DNA of 50,089 nucleotides, from positions 1-50,089 of the forward strand of contig JBCBNX010000025.1 in NCBI GenBank assembly GCA_039821555.1, given 5' to 3'. Shown here piece by piece: positions 10,416-47,877 of this stretch. The first letter of the stretch is position 1. The number at the start of each line of letters is the position of its first letter. A program made the position numbers and the translations under genes. The DNA comes from Bacteroidota bacterium (GTDB lineage: Bacteria > Bacteroidota > Rhodothermia > Rhodothermales > Rubricoccaceae). The notes under the pieces were generated by a model, which made no database searches, was not told the DNA's origin, and saw nothing but the letters and a program-made list of their open reading frames with translations.

Positions 10416-11615
10416 TTACAGGCCGTCTGCGTCCCCCTCGCCCGACGTAGGCTCGGCGGGGGGCTCGGTCGGCACCCCGTTGGATGACGCCGCGCTGGGT
10501 GGCGCCGCGCTGGATGGCGTTTCCTCCGTAGGCATGGCTGCCTCGGCAGAGACCCCGTCGGCGGACGCGTTGTCGCTCGCCTGGCGGGTTTCGAGTTCTT
10601 GGCGCAGCGCTTCCAGGCGCTGTTCGAGTTCGTACAACTCGCGCGCGCGCTCCTCCAGCGACTCGTAGGTTTCCGAGAGCGCCCGCTCGCGGATCTCGAA
10701 GGGCGCCAGTTCGAGGTAGCCGCGGTCCTCGTAGTAGCCCTTGAACAGGAAGTTGTGCTTGAGCGCCTCCATGTTCTCGGCGAGCCTGAACATGGCGAGG
10801 TTGCCCCAGTTGGCTGCGTCCTCCGAGCGCTCCAGCACGAGCATGAGGTCGTTGGCGATGGACCCGAGGCGGGCCGTGGCGTCCTCCACGTTCTCGTAGA
10901 CGCTCGGGTCGTTGATGAAGCGCGCGAGCGTGCCGTCGCCCTCGTTGACCTTGCTGATGATCGACTCGATGTTGGCCGAGGCGGTCGCGGCGATCGTGAC
11001 GAGCGTGTCGGCCTGAGCAGTGATACCCCGGAGCGAGACGCGCGTCTCCTGGGCCGTCGCCACGAGGCCATCGTAGAGAGCGGGATCGTAGATGAAGCGG
11101 CCGAGGGTGCCCTCGCCCGTCTGGATGTCCTGCATGATGCTCGTGAGCGTGACCGTCACCGAGTCGAAGCGCGACACCGAGTCGAAGAGCCGGTCGGAGA
11201 CCTCGCTGAGGTCGAGCGGGTCCACGCCCGCGATGCTCCCGCCTTCCGCCACCGGGGGCTCTAGCTCAGAGCCCGCCGTGATCGAGACGATCACGCTGCC
11301 GACGAGGCCGTCGGTCTGGATGAGCGCGCGCGAGTCCTCACGGATGAGGTGCTGGGCGTCCTCGCGGATCTCCATCATCACCGTAATGGGCCCCCCGGGA
11401 CGTGCCGGAAGCTGTACGCGCTCCACGCGCCCAACGTTGATGCCTTGATACAACACCTGCCCGCCGCTGAGCAGGCCCGCCACGCGGCCAAACTCGGCCT
11501 GCACGCGGAAGGTGTCCGAGAAGAGGAACGTGCGGTTGGCGATGATGAACAGACCAAGCACGAACGCGGCAATCCCCGCGATCATGAGCAGTCCGAGCCG
11601 AGCCTGTCGAGACAT
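10416..11615 (-). CDS. mlaD: MCE/MlaD-family protein (outer-membrane lipid asymmetry/transport substrate-binding component) with a long acidic/low-complexity C-terminal tail
   Basis: N-terminal TM anchor MSRQARLGLLMIAGIAAFVLGLFI followed by an Mce/MlaD domain (FRVQAEFGRVAGLLSGGQVLYQGINVGRVERVQL). It is the last gene of a permease-ATPase-MCE operon. Confidence 0.8.
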   Translation of the reverse strand: MSRQARLGLLMIAGIAAFVLGLFIIANRTFLFSDTFRVQAEFGRVAGLLSGGQVLYQGINVGRVERVQLPARPGGPITVMMEIREDAQHLIREDSRALIQTDGLVGSVIVSITAGSELEPPVAEGGSIAGVDPLDLSEVSDRLFDSVSRFDSVTVTLTSIMQDIQTGEGTLGRFIYDPALYDGLVATAQETRVSLRGITAQADTLVTIAATASANIESIISKVNEGDGTLARFINDPSVYENVEDATARLGSIANDLMLVLERSEDAANWGNLAMFRLAENMEALKHNFLFKGYYEDRGYLELAPFEIRERALSETYESLEERARELYELEQRLEALRQELETRQASDNASADGVSAEAAMPTEETPSSAAPPSAASSNGVPTEPPAEPTSGEGDADGL

Positions 11616-11617
11616 GA

Positions 11618-11725
11618 GGGAAGGAAGAAGTAGGAAGTTAGAAGTGGAAGACTGTTTGGATGTTCGAGGTGGGTAGGACGCGTCGAGGAACCGTACTTCT
11701 CACTTCAAACTTTTCACTTCTCACC
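11618..11725. repeat. purine-rich palindromic intergenic repeat, copy 1 (between the mlaF-like stop and mlaD-like start)
   Basis: Left arm GGGAAGGAAGAAGTAGGAAGTTAGAAGTGGAAG. Right arm GTACTTCTCACTTCAAACTTTTCACTTCTCACCTC, an inverted complement. It starts directly after the TGA of the upstream gene. Confidence 0.6.
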
Positions 11726-12442
11726 TCAAGGCTCGTTGCCGAAGAACTCGCGGAGGGCGGGGTGCGACGAGTGTTTGAGTTGGTCCAGGCTCCCGCTCTC
11801 GGCGATTTGGCCGTCGTAGAGGAAGTGGGCGCGGTCGGTAATGATACTCGCCGCCAGGAGGTCGTGCGTGATCGCGAGCGACGAGATGCCGAGCGTGTCG
11901 CGCAGCTCGACGATGAGCTCGCTCACGACGCGCACGCTCACGGGGTCGAGGCCCGTCGTCGGCTCGTCGTAGAGGATGATCTCGGGCTTGAGGATGAGCG
12001 CGCGCGCCAGCCCGATGCGCTTCTTCTGGCCGCCGGAGAGCTCGGCCGGATACTGTGCCCCCTTCTCGGGCAGCTTCACCGCCGTGAGCAACTCGTCGAT
12101 GCGGTCGTCCTTTTCGCCCTTCGACATCTTCGTGTGGCGGTCGAGGAAGAAGCGCATGTTCTCGTAGACCGTCATCGAGTCGAAGAGCGCGCCGCCCTGG
12201 AAGAGGTAGCCGATGGCGAGACGGTTTCGGTCGAGCGCGTCGCCGGTGAGCAGGTCTACGCGCTCGCCCTTGACCCACACCTCGCCGGCGTCGGGCCGCA
12301 GCAGCCCGACGATGTGCTTCGTGAGCACGCTCTTGCCCGTGCCCGAGCCGCCGAGGATCACGCCCGACGTGCCGCGCTCCAACTCCACGCTCACGCCGCG
12401 CAGCACCTCCTTCGTCCCGAAGGCCTTGTGCACGTTCCGCAT
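11726..12442 (-). CDS. mlaF: ABC transporter ATP-binding protein, MlaF-like
   Basis: Walker A GGSGTGKS, ABC signature LSGGQKKRIGLARAL, Walker B ILYDEPTTGLDP. The start is taken at MRNVHKAFG. The upstream part of the track ORF (to 12595) is translation of the repeat element. Confidence 0.8.
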   Translation of the reverse strand: MRNVHKAFGTKEVLRGVSVELERGTSGVILGGSGTGKSVLTKHIVGLLRPDAGEVWVKGERVDLLTGDALDRNRLAIGYLFQGGALFDSMTVYENMRFFLDRHTKMSKGEKDDRIDELLTAVKLPEKGAQYPAELSGGQKKRIGLARALILKPEIILYDEPTTGLDPVSVRVVSELIVELRDTLGISSLAITHDLLAASIITDRAHFLYDGQIAESGSLDQLKHSSHPALREFFGNEP

Positions 12443-12528
12443 CGCCACGATGAGGTGATCCGACGGTGGCGGCGAGCCCCCCGTCACCGGAGCTTGGTCA
12501 ACGTCTTTGGCTTTAGCAAGCACAGCCG

Positions 12529-12640
12529 AGGTGGGAAGTTGGAGGTGAGAAGTTCGAAGTGGCGGCCATCTTGGAAGGTCGAAGAGAACGATCACGCAAC
12601 GCGCTAGCTCTCACTTCCTACTTCGACCTGCTCACTTCTG
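12529..12640. repeat. purine-rich palindromic intergenic repeat, copy 2 (between the mlaE-like stop and mlaF-like start)
   Basis: Left arm AGGTGGGAAGTTGGAGGTGAGAAGTTCGAAGTGG. Right arm AGCTCTCACTTCCTACTTCGACCTGCTCACTTCTG. The arm motif family matches copies 1 and 3. Confidence 0.6.
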
Positions 12641-24893: not shown

Positions 24894-25535
24894 TCACGCC
24901 CCTGGCTTCTTCCACACCACCCGCGTGAGCGCGGCGAGACCTTGGTGATACGGCCCCTCGTCGAGCACGGCCTCGACCGTATCGAGCACGAGGAGCCCCG
25001 CATTGTCGCGCGGATCGCGCCCGAAGTGGGCGAGCACCTCGTCCGAGGACACCGTCATCGTCACGTCTCTTGGCCCGCCGCTCGTGTAGCCGCCAGTGAT
25101 TTGCTCGGGGCGGTACCACTCCGCGATGAACAGGCCGCTGGGCCGCAGCGCGCGACGGGCAAGGGCATAGACCGCCGGGCGAACAGCCTCGGGAAGATGC
25201 AGAAACGTCGCCACGACGGCGTCCCACTCCTGAGGCGGGTCCCACGCCGTCACGTCCGCCTGTGCGGTGGCGACCGTGACGCCATGCTCAGCTGCTAACG
25301 CGTTGGTTTTGGCGAGGCCCTCTGCGGCAAAGTCGAGGGCGGTGACGCCATAGCCCCGGGTTGCCATCCACACCGCATTGCGGCCTTCGCCTGCGGCAAG
25401 TTCGAGGACGGTCGAGCCCGGAGCGACGTGCGTCGGGACGGCCTCGGCAACGAAGGCGTTGGGCGCGGTCCCGTAGGCGAACGCCTCAGCGCCGAAGCGC
25501 ACGTTCCAGAAAGCAGGATCAGACGGAGTCGGCAT
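24894..25535 (-). CDS. class I SAM-dependent methyltransferase
   Basis: Motif I VLELAAGEGRNAVWMATRGYGVTALDFA, about 213 aa. Confidence 0.75.
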   Translation of the reverse strand: MPTPSDPAFWNVRFGAEAFAYGTAPNAFVAEAVPTHVAPGSTVLELAAGEGRNAVWMATRGYGVTALDFAAEGLAKTNALAAEHGVTVATAQADVTAWDPPQEWDAVVATFLHLPEAVRPAVYALARRALRPSGLFIAEWYRPEQITGGYTSGGPRDVTMTVSSDEVLAHFGRDPRDNAGLLVLDTVEAVLDEGPYHQGLAALTRVVWKKPGA

Positions 25536-25663
25536 CGGTCAGCGAGACGGTTGGTTGACAGGAAAGGGAAGCGGCGAAGCAACCCTAAGATCACCCCGCC
25601 GCTCAGACCAGTGCGGTGTCGGACGTGCTACTTCAGCCTTCGCACTTCAGCCGTCGCACTTCG

Positions 25664-26410
25664 CTACGCGGTCATCCCGCCGTCGACGGCAATCTGCGCG
25701 CCGGAGACGTAGCTGGCCTCGGGCGAGGCGAGGAACGCGACGACGCTGGCGATTTCCTCGGCGGTCCCGTAGCGGCCGAGGGCGGTCGCGCCGGCCATCA
25801 TGCCCGCAGCCGGGTTCACGTCGGGATCGCCGGGGTTCATCTCCGTGTCGATGGGGCCGGGGTGGACTGTGTTAACGGTGATGCCCTTGGCGCCGAACTC
25901 CTTCGCCGCCGAAGCTGTGATCGCGCCGACGCTGGCCTTCGTGGCGCTGTAGATCGACGCGCCCGGGAAGCCGACGAAGGCGACGACGCTGCCGATGTTG
26001 ATGACGCGGCCGTTCTCACGGAGGTGAGGCGCGGCAGCCCGGAGCGTGGCGAACACGCCGCGCACGTTCACGTCGATGCTCTGGTCAAACTCGGCGTCCG
26101 AGAACTCGGCGATAGGGCCGACGAGGTAGACGCCCGCGTTGTTGACGAGGATGTCGAGCCCGCCGAAGCGCTCGACGACCTGCGCGACGAGGGCATTGGC
26201 CGCGTCGGCATCGGCGGCGTTGGCCTGGAATGCGGCGGCGGTACCACCGGCCGCTTCGATGGTCGCGAGGACTTGGTTAGCGCGGTCGGGCGAGGAGTTA
26301 TAGGAGATCGCCACGGTCGCGCCGTCGGCGGCGAGACGCTGGGCGGTCGCGGCGCCGATACCGCGGCTGCCACCGGTGACGAGGGCGACTTTGCCAGAGA
26401 GGGAGGCCAT
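25664..26410 (-). CDS. SDR-family oxidoreductase (3-oxoacyl-ACP reductase-like)
   Basis: Start at MASLSGKVALVTGGSRGIGAA (TGxxxGxG). NNAG and the catalytic YxxxK region (YSATKASV) are present. The upstream part of the track ORF is non-coding. Confidence 0.8.
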   Translation of the reverse strand: MASLSGKVALVTGGSRGIGAATAQRLAADGATVAISYNSSPDRANQVLATIEAAGGTAAAFQANAADADAANALVAQVVERFGGLDILVNNAGVYLVGPIAEFSDAEFDQSIDVNVRGVFATLRAAAPHLRENGRVINIGSVVAFVGFPGASIYSATKASVGAITASAAKEFGAKGITVNTVHPGPIDTEMNPGDPDVNPAAGMMAGATALGRYGTAEEIASVVAFLASPEASYVSGAQIAVDGGMTA

Positions 26411-26572
26411 GAGAGGAGTGGGTTGGGCTGATTGAAAAGCGTGATGGCCCGTTGAAACATGTATCGGAACGAATGTTCCAGAATGGAGCAGGAGAAAATC
26501 TGAGCGGTTACGGAGGCAGCCCGGAGCTACGGCATTTTGACTGGACATACCACACCCAGCGCTGCACCTTTT

Positions 26573-26629
26573 CGACCCTCGACCCTCGACCCTCGACCCT
26601 CGACCCTCGACCCTCGACCCTCGACCCCT
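26573..26629. repeat. heptanucleotide tandem repeat (CGACCCT)x7 plus one imperfect unit; (GGGTCGA)n on the minus (coding) strand
   Basis: Read directly: CGACCCTCGACCCTCGACCCT... through 26629. It begins immediately after, and overlaps, the TGA of the TetR gene. It lies about 165 nt upstream of the SDR start. Confidence 0.9.
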
Positions 26630-27204
26630 CAGCCGAGCAACTGCATCGTCTGGTCCACCACGTCGTCGAGGACCGCGCGGTCGGGGCTCACGCGAGCGGT
26701 CACCCGGAGGCCGTAGACCGTGTTGGCGAGGAGCCGCGCCAGCGCCGTTGGGTTGCGGTCGGCGCCGATCTCGCCCTGCGCCTGCGCCTGCCGGACGGCG
26801 CGTTCGAAGCGGGCCTGGAGCACCGTGAGGCTCTCAGCCGTCCGCTCGGCCGTCTCCGGATCGTGCGGGGCACGCTCAGCGGTGGCGTTGACTACAAAGC
26901 AGCCGAGACAGTTTGCGGCAGCATCGTCCACGACGGCGCGGAGGTAGGCTTCAATGCCTGCGCGGGGCGAGCCGAGTGCGTCGCCCAACTGCTGGAGCGG
27001 GTCTACCTCAGTACCACGGTAGCGGTCGAGCGCGGCGAGGTAGAGTGCCTGCTTGCCGCCGAACGTGTCGTAGAGGCTGCTGCGGCTCAGGCCGAGGTGG
27101 TCCACGAGGTCCTGGATCGACACGGCCTCATAGCCCCGGTCCCAGAAGAGGGCTGCGGCGCGTTCCAGGACAGCGGCTTCGTCGAAGGCTTTGGCGCGGG
27201 GCAT
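26629..27204 (-). CDS. TetR/AcrR-family transcriptional regulator
   Basis: N-terminal HTH AAALFWDRGYEAVSIQDLVDHLGLSRSSLYDTFGGKQALYLAAL. 191 aa. Confidence 0.85.
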   Translation of the reverse strand: MPRAKAFDEAAVLERAAALFWDRGYEAVSIQDLVDHLGLSRSSLYDTFGGKQALYLAALDRYRGTEVDPLQQLGDALGSPRAGIEAYLRAVVDDAAANCLGCFVVNATAERAPHDPETAERTAESLTVLQARFERAVRQAQAQGEIGADRNPTALARLLANTVYGLRVTARVSPDRAVLDDVVDQTMQLLG

Positions 27205-27338
27205 GGCGGACGCAGGCAGGCTCGTGACATCGTTCGTGTTCTGGAACGGACGATCCGTGACCGGGTTGCGCGGCCTGTAGATGGCCTACTCTTCGGCCTG
27301 ACCAGAGACGCCTCTGGACTGCTAGGGAGCCATCGCCG

Positions 27339-28607
27339 TCAATCGAACCCGACGACGAGGGCAAAGCGGAAGATGTGGTGCGTCTTGGGCATCGCCGTGT
27401 TGACGAACTGGGCGCCCTCGGCAATGGCTGCGTCGATCACGCTCTGGGGGAGGCGCGGGGGGTCGTTGTCATAGGCGATCGTGTAGACGGGCGCGATGCT
27501 CACCGAGCCGCTCGACCCGATGTCGGCGAGTCGGAAGGTCAGGCGCGCGGTCGCGTCGATGCGATAGTTGCACCGCCCTTCGCCCGAGCCGCAGCCGTCG
27601 AAGTCGTAGAGTGGGAATTTGAAGTAGGGCCGGAGGTCGAAGCGGACGCGCTCAAAGGCGTCGCGTAGCGTGAGCGTCGGGCGCACCTCGAAGCGTGGAA
27701 TCGTGCTGCCGCCTAACTCCACGTCGACGCTGGTGGTGTCCATCCCGAGCACGCGGCGAGCCGTGACGGTCGACTGCTCGAACTCGAAGAAGGGCCCGGC
27801 GAGGAGGCCAAGCCGGAGGATGGTGTGGCGCTTCCGAACCACACGCTCGGCAAACGTCGCATAGGGCCGAAGGGCATCGAGGTCGGCGAGGACGCCTGCC
27901 AGGAGCGCGCCCTGCGTGGTCGAGTCGGCGTGGGCGGCAGCAAGGCAGCGGAACCAGTCGGTCTCGGCAAGGGCGGCGGCGGCGGCTGCCCGCGCGCTAT
28001 CGCCCTCGGCCGTGACGTAGCTCGGCAGGTTGTCCAGGCGCTTGCGCAGGGCCGTCCGCTTGCGGGTGTCCCACGTGTACGTCTGCCCGATCAGCCCCCC
28101 TCCGATTTCGTAGCGCTGGTCGATGCCGAGAAAGTTGTCGGTGTCGCGCTTGACGAAGGCGTAGGTCTCGAAGTTGGGCGAGAGGTGGTGGTCGTAGGAG
28201 AGCGTGAGCGACGAGACATTCTCCTGGACGGTCCCATCCTGAAGTGTGACGTCGGTGGCCGCGCTGAAGTTGATCTCGCCGGGATATTCGCCGCGGTCGA
28301 GGCTCACGCCGACGGCGAGCCGGTAGAGGGAGCGCTCGTCGGTGGCGTCGCTGGCGAAACTGGCCCGGGCCCGACCGGAGAGAGCGCGCTGCTGGCGCTC
28401 TTCCGCCTCGATGAGGGCGAGCGCGCTCCACACCCCGTTGCCTGTGGCGGCTGAGCATCCATCGACCCGCGCCATCATCCCGTCAAGGGGCGGCGCGAGC
28501 AGCCGCAGCCGGGCGAGTGCGGCATCGAGGTCTTGTGCGACCACAGGCGGCACGCTGAGCGCGACAACGGTGAGCAGCAAGGCGAAAAGCGAGAGGCGAC
28601 GGAGCAT
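27339..28607 (-). CDS. hypothetical secreted / outer-membrane beta-barrel-like protein
   Basis: Signal peptide MLRRLSLFALLLTVVALSVPPVVAQ. Alternating hydrophobic beta-strand pattern and an aromatic-rich C-terminus (HIFRFALVVGFD). No confident family assignment. Confidence 0.5.
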   Translation of the reverse strand: MLRRLSLFALLLTVVALSVPPVVAQDLDAALARLRLLAPPLDGMMARVDGCSAATGNGVWSALALIEAEERQQRALSGRARASFASDATDERSLYRLAVGVSLDRGEYPGEINFSAATDVTLQDGTVQENVSSLTLSYDHHLSPNFETYAFVKRDTDNFLGIDQRYEIGGGLIGQTYTWDTRKRTALRKRLDNLPSYVTAEGDSARAAAAAALAETDWFRCLAAAHADSTTQGALLAGVLADLDALRPYATFAERVVRKRHTILRLGLLAGPFFEFEQSTVTARRVLGMDTTSVDVELGGSTIPRFEVRPTLTLRDAFERVRFDLRPYFKFPLYDFDGCGSGEGRCNYRIDATARLTFRLADIGSSGSVSIAPVYTIAYDNDPPRLPQSVIDAAIAEGAQFVNTAMPKTHHIFRFALVVGFD

Positions 28608-32810: not shown

Positions 32811-35327
32811 CTAGAAGTCCGTCGACTCGTCGCCGCCGCCTTGTCCGCGACCGCCGCGCTGGCGGTCGGGACGCCGCTGTGGTTGCTGGCCGAACGTGTA
32901 GTTGAACGTGAACGTCAGGAAGCGTGCCTGCCAGCGCCGCTCGCCCACCCGGTCGCTGAAGCGGTCACGGATGGCGAACTCGAAGCCGGCCGTGTCAAAC
33001 ACGTCGCCCATCGTCACGGCGAGGCTCGCGCGGTCGTCGAGCAGCTTCTGGCGGACCGAGAGGTTCGTGAACGAGAACGCCTCGATGAGGCCGTTGGGGA
33101 TGTCGCGCGGTGCGCGGTAGAAGCCGAAGAACTGCACCGCCGTCCCGGTCGGGAAGTTGTAGGACAGGTTGCCGCGCAAGCTCCACTGGAAGCCGTTGGC
33201 CGCGAGGTCGGTGTCGGCGTTTTGCCCGTCCGTCTGGAACTGGTAGGCGCTCAGCGTCACGAAGCTGCTGAAGCGCTGGCCAAAGCGGAGGCTGCCGACG
33301 GTCTCGACGCCGTAGTTCTCCTCCGTGTCGAAGTTGACGAACGTGCGCACGGTGCGGCCGTTGTCGTCGGGCGGGGTAGAGAAGCGCGTGATGGCGTCCG
33401 TGGTGCGGCGATAGAACGGCGTGACGGTGAGCGTCGTCTTCGGCGTAAACCAGGTGAGGCCGACCTCATACGAGTCCGTGTATTCGGGCTGCAGACCCGG
33501 ATTGCCGACGCGCACGTTGAGGGGGTCCTCGCGGTTTTCGAACGGATTGAGCGCGCGCGTCGACGGGCGGTTGATGCGGCGACTATAGCTGGCCTGTGCG
33601 GAGACGCCGTCGGTGAACTGGTAGGTGGCGAAGGCGCTCGGGAAGACGCTGAAGTAGTCGTTGTCGAAAGCACCCGAATCGTCCTGACCCGGCGCGGGCT
33701 GTGCGAGGTCGAACGTGGTGAAGGCCTGCTCCAGACGCGCGCCGGCCTTGAGGCTGAGCGGGCCGAAGCTGCGGCTGAGGAGGCCGTAGACGGCGTGGAC
33801 CTGCTCGTCGAACACGAAGCTGTTCGAGAGTTCGCCGACCGACTGGAAGGCGTCGAGCGCGAGGGTGTCGACCACGAAGTCGTCGTCGGTGCGGGTGAAC
33901 TCGCTGCGGAAGCCGGTTTCGAGGCTGAGATCGCCGAGAGGCTTCACCCAGTCGAGTTGAAGCGAGCCCTCCTGTTTGAAGCGGTCGGTCGTGTTGCGCT
34001 CGGTCACCGTCGGCGAGGCGACGGCGCCGTCGACAAGGGCTGAGCCTTCCGTGAACACGCTGAAGTCGTCGCGGGCGTCGGCGGTGTAGCGGGCCTCGAC
34101 GGTGAGCTCGTCCGTAGAGCGTGCCTGCACGCGTGAGAACGTGAGCGCCAGGTCGCCGTTGAGGTCATCCTCGTCCTCATCGCTGAGGCGGAAGGACTGC
34201 AGGCGGTTGCCGTCGTCGAAGAGTTCGTTGCGGAAGTTGACTTCTTCGTCGCTGCCGAACCCGAGGCTGAGGCGGCCCGAGGCCGAGAGCGTCATCTTGG
34301 GTGAGAGCTTGTAGTCCGCCGAGGCGCTCAGGAGGTGGCCGAGGCTCTGGCTCTCGCCATCGTCGTCGGTGAATCGGGTGTCGAGCCGCGGGGTCCCGTC
34401 TTCGGCGAGCGGGAGGGTGAAGTCGGCGTCATTGATGCCGCCGGACTCGCGGACGTTGCGGCGGAGCCCGTAGGTCACGAACGTGGTCCACGGCCCGCGC
34501 TGGTAGCCGACGTTGCCCGAGACGTTGTAGCCGCCGATGGTTTCGGCCGCCGCCGTGAGGCCGCCCGAGAGGCCGAGGTCGGTGTTCTCCTTCAGGATGA
34601 TGTTGATGATGCCGCCGAGGCCCTCCGGCTCGTACTTCGCGCTCGGGTTGGGGATCACCTCGACGCGCTCGACGCTCGACGCGGGCAGCTGCTGGAGGTA
34701 GCTCGCTAGGAACGCACCCGTGATCGGGACCGGCCGGCCGTTGATCTGGACGGCGACGTTCTGGTTGCCGCGCAGGCTGATGTTGCCGTCGATGTCGACC
34801 TCGATGGCCGGGACGTTGCGCAGGAGATCCGTCACCGAGCCGACGTCGGCCGCGATCTGGTCGGCGGTGTTGAAGACGGTGCGATCCACCTGCACCTCGA
34901 TGTCGTCACGGATGCCTTCCACCTGGACGCCCTCCAGGAGCGCCGCGTCCGGGACGAGTTCGAGGGTACCGAGGTCGGCGACGAGGCTGCCGGGTCGCAG
35001 TGCGAGGTCGTCGATGCGCTGGTTGACGTAGCCGACGTAGGTGAGCGTGAGGTAGTAGCGCCCCGGCCGCAGCGGGCGGATGTCGAAGCCGCCCTCGGCG
35101 TCGGTGAGCGCGCCCGTCACGAGCGACGAGTCGCGTGCGCTCCACACGGTCGCCGTGGCGAGCTCGACGGGTTGCCCCGTGTCGGCGTCGATGACGGTGC
35201 CGGTGATGGCGCCGCCGCGCATCTGTCCGGGCGGGCCGCCGGGACGTCCGCCGGGGCGCTGGGCAAAGACCGGGAGGGCGAGCGCTCCGACGAGGAGCAG
35301 CAGGAGCAGGCGCGTACCGATGCGCAT
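32811..35327 (-). CDS. TonB-dependent outer-membrane receptor with an N-terminal carboxypeptidase-regulatory-like domain
   Basis: Start at MRIGTRLLLLLLVGALALPVFAQ. CarbopepD_reg-like ITGTVIDADTGQPVELATATVW...YYLTLTYVGY. Plug and barrel regions follow. C-terminal F (..GGDESTDF). Confidence 0.85.
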   Translation of the reverse strand: MRIGTRLLLLLLVGALALPVFAQRPGGRPGGPPGQMRGGAITGTVIDADTGQPVELATATVWSARDSSLVTGALTDAEGGFDIRPLRPGRYYLTLTYVGYVNQRIDDLALRPGSLVADLGTLELVPDAALLEGVQVEGIRDDIEVQVDRTVFNTADQIAADVGSVTDLLRNVPAIEVDIDGNISLRGNQNVAVQINGRPVPITGAFLASYLQQLPASSVERVEVIPNPSAKYEPEGLGGIINIILKENTDLGLSGGLTAAAETIGGYNVSGNVGYQRGPWTTFVTYGLRRNVRESGGINDADFTLPLAEDGTPRLDTRFTDDDGESQSLGHLLSASADYKLSPKMTLSASGRLSLGFGSDEEVNFRNELFDDGNRLQSFRLSDEDEDDLNGDLALTFSRVQARSTDELTVEARYTADARDDFSVFTEGSALVDGAVASPTVTERNTTDRFKQEGSLQLDWVKPLGDLSLETGFRSEFTRTDDDFVVDTLALDAFQSVGELSNSFVFDEQVHAVYGLLSRSFGPLSLKAGARLEQAFTTFDLAQPAPGQDDSGAFDNDYFSVFPSAFATYQFTDGVSAQASYSRRINRPSTRALNPFENREDPLNVRVGNPGLQPEYTDSYEVGLTWFTPKTTLTVTPFYRRTTDAITRFSTPPDDNGRTVRTFVNFDTEENYGVETVGSLRFGQRFSSFVTLSAYQFQTDGQNADTDLAANGFQWSLRGNLSYNFPTGTAVQFFGFYRAPRDIPNGLIEAFSFTNLSVRQKLLDDRASLAVTMGDVFDTAGFEFAIRDRFSDRVGERRWQARFLTFTFNYTFGQQPQRRPDRQRGGRGQGGGDESTDF

Positions 35328-36190
35328 GGCGGTGGGGAGTCGAAGGGGAGAAGGGCGAAGGAGAAGGGGAGCGGAGCACCTGGTGGACAGGCACGTACCG
35401 GCGCGCGGTGAGACCCGTGGCAACGTTCGTAGCTCCAAGGGTATACCCTGCAGTGCTTCTATGTGTCACACCGGGGTGTCGGTTGCGTGAAGTGTGCGCG
35501 CAGCCCGTGGACGACCGGAGCACTACGCAGGTTCGCGCGGCTCCGTTGCATGCGGTCGTTGTCACATCCTGCCGTCTGTGCGGAGGGGCTACGGAAGCAG
35601 GCTCACGGAGACAGATCGGTGCCCTCCATGTCGCCGCTCGGGGCCGCTGGCGACCGCTCGTCTACCCACAAACACCGCTCGCGGTCACGGCAGCCGGTTG
35701 CCCCACGCAGCCTCGGCTACCCTGTGGGTGTCTACTCAGCAAGGTTGGCGCGCACGCGAGTGCGCCCTCGCCTGTAGGTAACAAATGCCATCGGCGCATC
35801 GGCGTTGACGTAGCGACTTGCTGACGCAACGACTTTGGCGGAGGAGTGTGCCGTCGCCCGAAAGCGGCTCGTGGGGACGTGGCGCATCTACGAGGGCGAC
35901 GGCACCCTCCGCCCTACACTGCCCGGTGCAGTGACCAACGGGCACCCGGTGGAGAGCCAGCGCCTGGGCGATGTACACCATGGTTATGCTAGGCGCTTTA
36001 AAATGCTTGGATAGGGCACAATCGGAAGCGCTCCCGTAACCAGACGGGTAGGTTGCGTATACCACCGGTGTCTTTCGGCAACGCCCGCGGATGCTGGACT
36101 CCACGAGGGGGTCCGCGTTATCCTTGCGGGCCGTCGCCCCCACTGGCGCTGCGCCCGAATGAGGGTCTGTAGCGCCGAGCCGAGCCGCTC

Positions 36191-45543: not shown

Positions 45544-47832
45544 ATGATCCAGGCCTCCGCCCACCTCGACGCGCAGCTTCGCGAACTCAAAGTCGACGCG
45601 AAGTACCGGCGCGGGCTGCGGGTACTGATCGAGCACGCCCGGCGGCGGCTGCCGAGCGTGGACGAGCAGCTGCTCCGCCGCGCCTTCCAGGTGGCCTACT
45701 GGGCGCACCGAAACGACCGCCGCGCCGACGGCTCGCTCTACATCGCGCACCCGCTCGAAGTCGCCACCATCGCCGCGCGGGACATCGCCTTCGACGACGT
45801 GACCGTGGTCGCCGCGCTGCTGCACGACACCGTCGAGGACACCGACATCTCGCTCGACTTCTTGGAGGCTGAGTTTGGAGCCGAGCTCGCGCAGGTCGTG
45901 GACGGCGTCACCAAGATCGACCACGTCTTCGAGAGCAAAAAGCTAGGCCGCGACGAGAACGTGCGCAAGCTCATGCTCTCGATGGCGAGCGACATCCGTG
46001 TCATCCTGGTGAAGTTCGCCGACCGGCTGCACAACATGCGGACGCTAGAGAGCCTCCCGCAGGCGAAGCAACTCCGCATCGCTTCGGACACGCTCGCGCT
46101 CTTTGCGCCGTTGTCGCACCGCTTCGGCCTCAACGCCATCAAGACGGAGTTGGAGGACCTCTGCCTGAAATACATCGACCCGGAGCGCTACCAGCACATC
46201 ACGACGGGGCTGAAGGCCAACCGGCGGCAGCGCGAGACGTACCTCCGCCGCTTCATCGAGCCCGTCCAGAAGGAGCTCGAAGGCGCGGGTCTGACGTTCG
46301 AGATCACCGGGCGCCCGAAGTCGATCTACTCGATCTACCGGAAGATGAAGGCGCAGGATAAAGACCTCGACGAGATCTACGACCTGCTCGCCATTCGCAT
46401 CATCCTGGAGAGCGAAGGCCGCCAGGGCCGCGAGGATTGCTGGCGCGTCTACTCGATCCTCACGGACCTCTACCCGCCCATTCCCGAGCGCTTCCGCGAC
46501 TTTATCTCGCTGCCGAAGTCGAACGGCTACCAGAGCCTCCACACGACCGTCATCGGGCCGAAGGGGCGGCGCATCGAGATCCAGGTGCGCACGCAGGAGA
46601 TGCACGAGATCGCCGAGCGCGGCGTGGCGGCGCACTGGAAGTACAAGGAGAAGAACGCCGACGGCTCCCGGAACAGCCCGCGCGCCGACGAGCGCCTCGA
46701 CTCGCTCTACTCGTGGGTGCGCGACATGCTCGAAAACCCGCAGCCCGACGCGGCGAGCGACTTCGTGCAGGAGTTCTCGCTCAACCTCTACGCCGAGGAG
46801 ATCTACGTCTTCACGCCCGCTGGCGACCTGCTCACGCTCCCGCGCGGCGCTACGCCCGTCGACTTCGCCTACCAGGTGCACACCGAGGTCGGCAACCGCT
46901 GCATCGGCGCTAAGGTCAACGGCAAGATGGTCCCGCTTTCGCACAAGCTGGCCTCCGGCGACCAGGTTGAGATCCTCACGTCGAAGAAGCAGTCGCCCAA
47001 CCCAGACTGGGCGAACTTCGTGGTCACGACGAAGGCGAAGGCCCGCATCCGGCAGCACATCAACGAGAAGCGCCGCAAGGCCGTCGACCAGGGCCGCGCC
47101 GTGTTTGAGAAGCGCCTCGCGAAGGCGGGCGTCGAGATCGACCAGCAGGCCATCGCGCGCACAGCGGCGAAGCTGAAGTTTCCCGACTCGCAGCAGGTCT
47201 TCTACGAGATCGGCACCGGCGCGTACGACGCCGACACGTTTATCACAGCGCTGCGCCGCGGTGCCGAGGCAGCCCGGGTCGAAACCGAACAGGCTAACGC
47301 CGAGACCGCCGAGGCGCAGGCGCGCTACCTCGACCAGGAGGCCACGCGCGTCACGCGCCAGGCCCGCGAGGCCAACCTCCCCGCGCTCATCGTCGACGGC
47401 GAGCCGATGTCGGACCTCGCCACGCGCTACGCCAACTGCTGCAACCCGATCCCCGGCGACGAGGTGGTCGGGTTCGCGAGCAAGACGGGCGCCATCACGA
47501 TCCACCGCGGCACGTGCCGCAACGCGCTCCACCTGATGGCCGAGCAGCCCGAGCGCATCCTGCCCGTGGACTGGAGCCGCCAAAAGGATGCGCAGTTCAT
47601 CGTCGGCCTGCGCATCATCGGCGAGGACCGCGTCGGCATCGTGAGCGACCTCACCACGATGATCTCGAAGAACCAGCGCACCAACATCCGCTCGATCACG
47701 GTCGAGAGCGAGGACGGCATGTTCGAGGGCAACCTCGTGCTCTTCGTGAGCGACCTCAAGCACCTGCAGCGGCTGATGGACCGCATGCGACAGATCGACG
47801 GCATCTTCGGCGTCTATCGGTTTGAAGAGTAG
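45544..47832 (+). CDS. spoT: bifunctional (p)ppGpp synthetase/hydrolase, RelA/SpoT family
   Basis: HD hydrolase domain (HPLEVATIAARDIAFDDVTVVAALLHDTVEDT), synthetase domain (RPKSIYSIYRKM...DLLAIRIIL...GYQSLHTTV), then TGS and C-terminal ACT. Start at MIQASAHLD. Confidence 0.9.
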   Translation: MIQASAHLDAQLRELKVDAKYRRGLRVLIEHARRRLPSVDEQLLRRAFQVAYWAHRNDRRADGSLYIAHPLEVATIAARDIAFDDVTVVAALLHDTVEDTDISLDFLEAEFGAELAQVVDGVTKIDHVFESKKLGRDENVRKLMLSMASDIRVILVKFADRLHNMRTLESLPQAKQLRIASDTLALFAPLSHRFGLNAIKTELEDLCLKYIDPERYQHITTGLKANRRQRETYLRRFIEPVQKELEGAGLTFEITGRPKSIYSIYRKMKAQDKDLDEIYDLLAIRIILESEGRQGREDCWRVYSILTDLYPPIPERFRDFISLPKSNGYQSLHTTVIGPKGRRIEIQVRTQEMHEIAERGVAAHWKYKEKNADGSRNSPRADERLDSLYSWVRDMLENPQPDAASDFVQEFSLNLYAEEIYVFTPAGDLLTLPRGATPVDFAYQVHTEVGNRCIGAKVNGKMVPLSHKLASGDQVEILTSKKQSPNPDWANFVVTTKAKARIRQHINEKRRKAVDQGRAVFEKRLAKAGVEIDQQAIARTAAKLKFPDSQQVFYEIGTGAYDADTFITALRRGAEAARVETEQANAETAEAQARYLDQEATRVTRQAREANLPALIVDGEPMSDLATRYANCCNPIPGDEVVGFASKTGAITIHRGTCRNALHLMAEQPERILPVDWSRQKDAQFIVGLRIIGEDRVGIVSDLTTMISKNQRTNIRSITVESEDGMFEGNLVLFVSDLKHLQRLMDRMRQIDGIFGVYRFEE

Positions 47833-47877
47833 GCCAGCGGTTTGAAGAGTAGGCCAGCGGTTTGAGGAGGAGGCCGG
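47818..47877. repeat. three tandem 20-bp units, CGGTTTGAAGAGTAGGCCAG x2 plus a diverged third, spanning the relA/spoT stop codon
   Basis: Read directly: ...TATCGGTTTGAAGAGTAGGCCAGCGGTTTGAAGAGTAGGCCAGCGGTTTGAGGAGGAGGCCGG. The first unit encodes the last codons (RFEE*) of the gene. Confidence 0.8.

Follow-up and report, generated by a model that had tools for sequence, protein, structure and literature searches.

What does a perfect array of a G-rich heptamer do when it begins one base after the stop codon of a tetR-type gene and lies upstream of the gene that the encoded repressor presumably controls? We examined this question for the (GGGTCGA)8 array located between a TetR/AcrR-family gene (tetR) and a short-chain dehydrogenase/reductase (SDR) gene in a stretch of 50,089 nt from a Bacteroidota bacterium (GenBank assembly GCA_039821555.1, contig JBCBNX010000025.1, positions 1 to 50,089 of the forward strand), hereafter the window. 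The array is a real, polymorphic heptanucleotide variable-number tandem repeat that belongs to the class of G-rich heptamer simple sequence repeats (SSRs). Regarding its role, the reading that we tentatively prefer, with a probability of roughly 0.4, is that the array may be the first tract to be transcribed in a weak antisense unit and, at the same time, form a boundary, asymmetric between the strands, at tetR's 3′ end, both tuned by the number of repeats.

Tandem Repeats Finder (TRF) reads the array on the plus strand as TCGACCC × 8.0 with 100% matches and a score of 112, the maximum in the window, and it is the sole perfect repeat in these 50 kb with a unit of 4–12 nt and at least four copies. 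A 21-nt probe of three units (up to two mismatches allowed) had six matches, all within the array, and matched none of 100 dinucleotide shuffles. On the minus strand, which is the sense strand of both tetR and SDR, the end of tetR reads CTC GGC TGA G (GGGTCGA)8 AAAAGG. An earlier note on this DNA had counted seven perfect units and an imperfect one; the total of eight stands, but all eight are perfect and are preceded by an extra G at 26628. The placement next to the tetR stop codon was also right, with the coordinates corrected to 26572–26627 and one base between the stop and the array. The array is co-directional with SDR, as had been stated, and lies 161 nt, not about 165 nt, from the SDR start, which we place at ATG 26410 on the basis of the 248-aa gene calls in four other assemblies and of the alignment with orthologs.

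Several bacterial phyla have G-rich heptamer repeats in abundance, and their placement at the boundaries of open reading frames (ORFs) was described ten years ago without a function. In Xanthomonas and Nostoc, the GGGNATC and GGGGAYT repeats comprise 2–26 units, vary in unit number between related genomes, form G-quadruplexes (G4) when assayed in vitro and are transcribed for the most part (Rehm et al. 2015, PMC4692102). The same authors found no function, judged phase variation unlikely, and noted that the associated genes are mostly metabolic and not of the surface or contingency type. They also formulated a positional rule, according to which the G-rich strand is the non-coding strand when the repeat is just upstream of an ORF, or the coding strand when it follows a stop codon. 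The array studied here has the features of this class: a unit of 7 nt in which a G3 tract is joined to a loop of 4 nt, at least four tracts, length variation at the same intergenic site, and a post-stop position. As in the class, (GGGTCGA)n arrays are mostly found between co-directional ORFs, have mostly metabolic neighbors and follow the same positional rule. Three differences were observed: the unit is GGGTCGA, whose loop, TCGA, is palindromic; the host belongs to an uncultured, Rhodothermales-like lineage of Bacteroidota with high GC, whose array is predicted to form G4; and the arrays of this lineage are tied to a TTGAC-N17-CACCTT box that is not reported for the Rehm class. A literature search with the exact repeat sequence returned no relevant paper. 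The array is thus a member of the Rehm class with a new unit and new host lineages, and the link to the box is a new lead. It also fits the descriptive category of long simple sequence repeats (LSSRs; Mrazek et al. 2007, as summarised in PMC4679880), in which heptamers are the most frequent: it is a perfect array of a 5–11-nt unit, beyond chance length, in a GC-rich genome, of the kind attributed to slippage. In that summary, however, the category carries no mechanism and is silent on a flanking box and on the ORF-boundary rule.

We evaluated the positional rule with a scan of species-representative genomes for (GGGTCGA)3GGG, which retrieved at least 120 genome stretches; the matches listed include arrays from Gemmatimonadota, Verrucomicrobiota, Planctomycetota, Pseudomonadota and others. 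The test set comprised 48 tracts of at least three units whose genomes have a GC content of 60% or more and whose two neighbors were both callable. In 42 of the 48, the nearer ORF was that at the 5′ side of the G-rich strand (p = 1e-7; median distance of 11 nt, versus 101.5 nt on the other side), based on gene calls from a codon-position GC heuristic that may err in individual cases. Arrays on the start side were within 15 nt before a start codon in 21 cases, with the C-rich strand as sense, and 16 of 112 arrays in other genomes resembled that of the window, having the G-rich strand as sense and a stop codon no more than 15 nt before them. In five loci from other phyla (L014, L064, L075, L121 and L127), (GGGTCGA)n occurs as inverted pairs, with G- and C-rich tracts on the same strand at a distance of 50–100 nt; long hairpins could result, a possibility also noted by Rehm et al. 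for their own repeats.

The number of units at the tetR locus varies within the species. Among conspecific metagenome-assembled genomes (MAGs), all of them short-read assemblies, GCA_039822845.1 carries eight copies, as does the window; GCA_039816685.1 carries seven, together with several single-nucleotide differences in the flanks; and GCA_039817495.1 has a scaffold gap of 100 N inside the array, with six units on either side. Four short-read contigs from Logan begin or end within the array and hold no copy-number information. The earlier note had called the array slippage-prone and had proposed comparing copy numbers among strains; this comparison, made on assemblies, shows that the number is not invariant, and the copy numbers of 8 and 7 in conspecific genomes and of 4 and 3 in sister species bear out the slippage. 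Eight units amount to 56 nt, which is the output of a de Bruijn assembler with k = 55 for any longer array of whole units.

The closest TetR homologs (79–80% identical) are encoded in the same tetR-SDR-methyltransferase block of MAGs from two other species, L137 and L138. In both, the array begins one base after the tetR stop codon, reading TAG C (GGGTCGA)4 in L137 and TAG C GGGTCGA AGGTCGA AGGTCGA in L138. Since these loci carry four and three units at the same place, the site of the array is conserved among the three species and its length is not. The quadruplex potential is not conserved either, given that L138 is left with a single GGG run and L137 with the bare minimum of four. A more distant ortholog (L139/L140; 64% identity, same SDR) has neither the array nor the box; about 30 nt after its tetR stop it shows the palindromes CTGGAACATTCGTTCCAAC and CGGAACGAATGTTCCAAAAC, followed by the SDR start. 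Because the operator and SDR are intact in this array-less ortholog, the SDR control region is older than the array and independent of it. As judged from these sequences, about 110–125 nt, comprising the array and its flank, were gained in the ancestor of the three species. The array and a TGGACA-N17-CACCTT box entered the common ancestor of three high-GC, Rhodothermales-like Bacteroidota, and expansion, contraction and partial decay have followed. A mobile element or miniature inverted-repeat transposable element was considered as the source; the 161-nt flank has no second copy in the window or in the fetched loci except the orthologs, and recent transposition was rejected because this flank is single-copy and the spacers of the box differ between loci of one genome. 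The result is a natural series of 0, 3 (with the G-runs lost), 4, 7, 8 and possibly more copies at one site, and therefore the G4-dependent and G4-independent effects of the array are separable.

On the C-rich strand, the array is adjoined by a promoter-like box that points antisense into the 3′ end of tetR. It consists of TTGACT (26537–26542), overlapping TGGACA (26542–26547), a 17-nt spacer (26548–26564), CACCTT (26565–26570) and a T (26571), and its geometry is kept in the sister species (TTGACG-N17-CACCTT in L137 and TTGGCG-N17-CACATT in L138). Its identity to L137 and L138 is 74% and 66%, compared with 51% and 49% for the adjacent spacer. Five MAGs named "Bacteroidota bacterium", from the same accession block as the relatives of the window, share the flank of its array, and their TetR homologs suggest that they are Rhodothermales relatives. 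The shared flank reads, on the C-rich strand, TTGAC(N), 17–18 nt, CACCTT(T) and (TCGACCC)n; in 11 of 15 arrays of this lineage, TTGAC is placed exactly 17–18 nt before CACCTT, with the array 0–1 nt beyond. The box is common to nine other genes of the lineage and to both orthologous tetR loci. In nine independent genes, including lepA, purB, dapF, an SDR, HAD-like and nadC-like genes and membrane proteins, the array ends 1–14 nt before the start codon, and the C-rich strand is the sense strand. A metagenome scan with the box plus array gave three matches from the lineage, all in the HAD-like gene, where the additional alleles comprise 3, 2+1+3 and 6 units. Related species have at least 2–4 array loci each among the matches listed, and the 50-kb window has one copy.

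The same box precedes arrays of other units, (TCGACCT)6 and (CACGACC)5, which lack GGG and keep the C>G asymmetry. Because this asymmetry is common to all arrays of the lineage, including those without GGG, we favor a role at the RNA level or as a leader over a role as a quadruplex. The tight link to the box likewise suggests that the arrays are transcribed leaders and not DNA switches. The genes of the lineage have Shine-Dalgarno (SD) motifs in 2 of 27 cases, their leaders are C-rich (GC skew of −0.22 at −20 to −1), and the sequence just after their stop codons is slightly G-rich. The possibility that the box is simply the generic promoter of the lineage was rejected, since a position weight matrix score of at least 12 bits was reached in 2 of 69 upstream regions without arrays versus 1 of 79 coding controls. 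Compared with these genes, the module in the window is reversed: the array adjoins the stop codon of tetR, and the direction of the box is antisense to this gene. The G-rich sense orientation at tetR is therefore atypical for the lineage, in which nine other genes have the C-rich strand as sense (one locus versus nine). Two further arrangements were seen in related MAGs. In L118 (3634–3689), a perfect (ACGGTTG)8 array, equivalent to (TTGACGG)n, has a unit that contains the −35-like TTGAC. Upstream of lepA in L030, two copies of the box (4698 and 4797, minus strand), both starting with TTGACGCGCCCGT, are 99 nt apart, and the array is on the proximal copy only.

The box shares features with Bacteroidetes sigma-A promoters, for which the elements −33 TTTG and −7 TAnnTTTG, revised to TAHHTTTG, have been reported (PMC6847099). 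CACCTTT fits four of the six near-invariant positions of the −7 element and both H positions: CACCTTT(T) matches A-11, H-10, H-9, T-8, T-7 and T-6. In contrast, it has C instead of T at −12 and lacks G at −5, and its upstream element is a sigma-70-like TTGAC at 17–18 nt, not a TTTG at 19–21 nt. From the geometry of the −7 element, transcription is predicted to start within the first repeat unit, which would put the beginning of the array at about +1; the leaders without SD sequences agree with such promoters.

From these results, a working model can be proposed. In the normal arrangement of the lineage, the box plus array would stand before a gene, the (TCGACCC)n sense strand would reach the start codon, and the array would be the transcribed, C-rich, unstructured leader of an mRNA without an SD sequence. 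The closest analogue of these start-adjacent arrays is the tandem TAACTGA heptamer of marine Beggiatoaceae, cyanobacteria and some Bacteroidetes, found just upstream of the starts of many genes without SD motifs (MacGregor 2015, PMC4679880). Like the arrays of lepA, purB and dapF, it lies a few nucleotides upstream of unrelated genes, essential ones included, in the forward orientation and without SD sequences; unlike them, it is A/T-rich, does not form G4 and has no described promoter box. The copy in the window differs from TAACTGA in another respect, as it follows a stop codon in reversed orientation and no start codon comes after its C-rich end. A second precedent is the (ATCTTTC)n repeat in the 5′ untranslated region (5′-UTR) of Haemophilus influenzae hmw1A and hmw2A, whose copy number grades expression (PMC8262952; PMC12721329). 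It is also a pyrimidine-rich heptamer SSR that is transcribed and lies between promoter and initiation codon; however, it pairs with a G-rich segment further downstream into a long hairpin that is cleaved by RNase III, and belongs to an adhesin of a host-adapted pathogen (PMC12721329), whereas the tetR-SDR spacer has no significant structure and the array there is not in the 5′-UTR of a protein gene. At tetR, with the module reversed, transcription of a weak antisense unit would begin with the array. The array would also act as a boundary, being C-rich, G-poor and unstructured for RNA that enters tetR from downstream, and G-rich and prone to structure for read-through from tetR. The repeat number would tune these effects by degrees and not as an on/off switch, and the array, located outside the SDR promoter and operator, would act independently of a conserved quadruplex. 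A role of the array as a Rho-loading (rut-like) tract is speculation. If the box is a promoter, this class of repeats becomes experimentally tractable; if it is not, the array is a hypervariable microsatellite of the common kind, whose main uses would be to mark strains and to warn of assembly breaks.

Several points weigh against the model of an antisense unit with a strand-asymmetric boundary. The −35 element is degenerate in the window (TGGACA) and in L138 (TTGGCG), a promoter scan of the E. coli type does not call the box, and the conservation of the box (66–74% over a background of about 50%) is moderate and concerns 35 positions in three related sequences. On the plus strand, the array is followed by no start codon, gene or small ORF conserved in the L137/L138 alignment, and consequently an antisense product would need to act as RNA or through transcriptional interference. 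The AAAGGTG motif after the array was also considered as an SD-like sequence or as part of a small ORF, and was discarded because inspection of the alignment revealed no conserved ORF in L137 or L138. No shared box was seen at the post-stop arrays of other phyla, so the boundary role and the promoter role may be unrelated. A microsatellite may persist without selection, since slippage keeps it homogeneous, and the count of eight copies may be a lower bound, because its 56 nt match the collapse expected from a k = 55 assembler. Finally, the promoter activity of the box, the antisense transcription and any effect on the expression of tetR or SDR are steps that we infer from sequence.

A broader version of this model, which we consider doubtful, would couple the TTGAC-N17-CACCTT promoter type systematically to arrays that start at the transcription start site. 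The arrays would then be a genome-wide set of C-rich leaders without SD sequences, tunable in length and acting as rheostats of housekeeping genes, and the tetR copy would be a reversed device that yields either an antisense RNA tuned by the number of repeats or a tract for Rho loading, and that determines the TetR level and, through it, the induction threshold of SDR and the methyltransferase. Were this correct, it would provide a mechanistic explanation for the ORF-boundary rule of Xanthomonas and Nostoc.

The alternative that best survives, although we regard it as rather unlikely, is that the array is a neutral relic: the module would have landed or become inverted in the tetR-SDR spacer and be functionless, slippage would keep the array homogeneous and variable, and a G-rich sense tract would be tolerated only far from the next start, that is, beside the upstream stop. 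The absence of the array from the distant ortholog with the same operator and SDR agrees with this, as do the decay in L138, where shared G-to-A changes are spread across units, and the atypical orientation. The RNA of the whole tetR-SDR spacer does not fold better than chance (z = +0.21; 115 of 200 shuffles fold equally well), and on this basis a regulatory RNA structure joining the array to the SDR start was rejected. In Rehm et al., moreover, the class is left without a function and phase variation is considered unlikely, and the general composition of leaders and trailers accounts for the polarity that is tolerated. On the other hand, position, unit and box are kept across three species at a distance where the neutral spacer is about 50% identical, the positional rule (42 of 48, across phyla) is hard to obtain from slippage alone, and several other post-stop tandem repeats in the same 50 kb suggest use and not mere tolerance.

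The potential of the sense strand to form a quadruplex supports another, improbable explanation, in which the non-template DNA or the nascent (GGGUCGA)n RNA would fold as the polymerase leaves tetR, causing pausing or termination or stabilizing the 3′ end of the tetR mRNA, and insulating SDR from tetR read-through. The description of the array as a textbook G4 motif was confirmed by the motif scan, in which it is a canonical G3N4 motif and the longest of five G3+N1-7 ×4 motifs in the window, and by the G4Hunter prediction score (mean of 1.39, maximum of 1.72 in a 25-nt window). The local RNA fold changes from −30.5 to −34.9 kcal/mol when quadruplex energies are included, a gain of 4.4 kcal/mol. 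In addition, the array occupies one of the two preferred positions of the Rehm class, whose oligonucleotides form G4 in vitro, 16 arrays elsewhere share the post-stop position and polarity, and a scan of 25400–27500 found no terminator of the hairpin-plus-U type, the array being followed by AAAAGG. Against this explanation, the G-runs are lost in L138 and at the minimum in L137, the AGGTCGA and GGTCGTG units of the lineage are incapable of a three-tetrad G4, and the self-complementary TCGA loops compete with G4 folding. Furthermore, the G-richness alone is unremarkable, because 16 regions exceed a G4Hunter score of 1.5 in this window of 67% GC.

The array was also evaluated as a contingency locus. 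It is neither between promoter elements nor in a reading frame; its neighbors encode TetR, SDR and a methyltransferase, and the arrays of the lineage precede lepA, purB, dapF, nuoA and similar genes, not genes for surface structures, restriction-modification or host interaction. The proposal of the earlier note, a phase-variable or structure-dependent, G4-based switch of SDR through the repeat number, is weakly supported and the least probable of the alternatives: the copy number does differ among strains and species and the array is upstream of and co-directional with SDR, but it lies outside the conserved SDR control region, which the array-less ortholog keeps, its G-runs are not conserved and are missing from the TCGACCT and CACGACC arrays, the spacer RNA folds no better than shuffled sequences, the associated genes of the lineage are housekeeping or metabolic ones, as noted for the Rehm class, and nine genes of the lineage use the repeat and box in the opposite, C-rich orientation. 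The other suggestion of the earlier note, a modulation of read-through from tetR, agrees with the positional rule of the Rehm class and may hold.

The features of the locus are collected in Table 1.

Table 1. Features of the tetR-SDR locus in the window.
Feature	Position	Strand	Evidence or remark
Perfect (GGGTCGA)×8 heptamer array	26572..26627	−	TRF; reads TCGACCC ×8 on the plus strand
tetR stop codon TGA (26631–26629) and the extra G (26628) joining the array	26628..26631	−	
Promoter-like box adjoining the array, on the C-rich strand	26537..26571	+	Antisense to tetR, directed at its 3′ end
TetR/AcrR-family repressor gene, 191 aa	26629..27204	−	Pfam TetR_N 5.7e-14, TetR_C_13 1.7e-12
SDR gene, 248 aa	25664..26410	−	Pfam adh_short_C2 6.2e-66; adh_short
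Operator-like palindrome TTCTGGAACATTCGTTCCGA in the spacer from the array to SDR	26464..26483	−	Conserved in L137/L138; twice in L139/L140
TTCTGGAAC half-site in an imperfect inverted repeat upstream of tetR	27239..27247	+	9-mer recurrence
Second, imperfect purine-rich repeat (period 7/14) directly after the SDR stop	25630..25662	−	TRF period 14, 2.4 copies, 94% matches

A methyltransferase gene completes the tetR-SDR-methyltransferase block. The operator-like palindrome TTCTGGAACATTCGTTCC (26466–26483) precedes the SDR ATG by 55–73 nt and shares 87% and 83% identity with its counterparts in L137 and L138; it is presumed to be the TetR site that controls SDR. The 9-mer TTCTGGAAC, which is half of this palindrome, occurs five times in the window (25503, 26475, 27239, 32766 and 44301), against 0.21 expected and with no shuffle out of 100 reaching this number. 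Two of these sites flank tetR and SDR, another falls within the opening codons of the methyltransferase gene, and the remaining two lie at other places; the site upstream of tetR is presumed to serve autoregulation, and the set may represent a small TetR regulon or a coincidence with FWN codons. In L137, a sense-strand TTGACT-N18-CAGCTT box (4802–4831) fits a TetR-repressed SDR promoter, because it is placed immediately upstream of the operator palindrome. The sequence of the window that aligns with it (CTGCCT ... CTGCTCC) is much poorer, and hence the strength of the SDR promoter may differ between species. The repeat that follows the SDR stop codon agrees in polarity with the tetR array, and both intercistronic junctions of the block have post-stop repeats; in the sister species, the SDR-methyltransferase junction shows GAAGGCA-like heptamers (L137, approximately 5654–5695; L138, approximately 5515–5550). 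An Rfam search of 25000–28000 at a permissive threshold gave three chance-level matches to snoRNA or viral families (E of at least 0.26, far below the gathering scores), none on the array, and the scans for E. coli-type sigma-70 promoters and intrinsic terminators around the locus found nothing.

In the window as a whole, 26 terminator-like hairpin-plus-U sites were found, compared with about 24 expected from shuffled sequences, and three E. coli-type promoter-like sites, compared with about three. The only convincing terminator is on the plus strand at 865–893. Neither kind of site exceeds the shuffles; this organism probably depends on different signals for starts and stops.

Other repeats were observed at gene boundaries of the window. 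The spacer between two co-directional genes at 11616–11727 (minus strand) has the purine-rich heptamers GGTGAGA AGTGAAA AGTTTGA AGTGAGA directly after the upstream stop codon, and the pyrimidine-rich heptamers CTTCTAA CTTCCTA CTTCTTC, which run into the ATG at 11615. These two sets pair, forming a long hairpin that includes the start region (minimum free energy of −39.5 kcal/mol, z = −4.0, 0 of 200 shuffles), which resembles the leader hairpin of hmw. At 47818–47875, the purine-rich 20-nt unit CGGTTTGAAGAGTAGGCCAG is repeated 2.9 times (TRF score of 102), apparently at the 3′ end of a gene; by eye, the stop codon of the upstream ORF is the TAG at 47831–47833 in the first copy, and the ORF call ends the frame at 47832. 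The leader of the minus-strand gene that starts at 35327 contains about 3.4 copies of TTCTCCC (35346–35368), pyrimidine-rich on the sense strand, and a C-rich repeat with a period of 14 (12527–12562) is found upstream of the minus-strand gene that starts at 12442.

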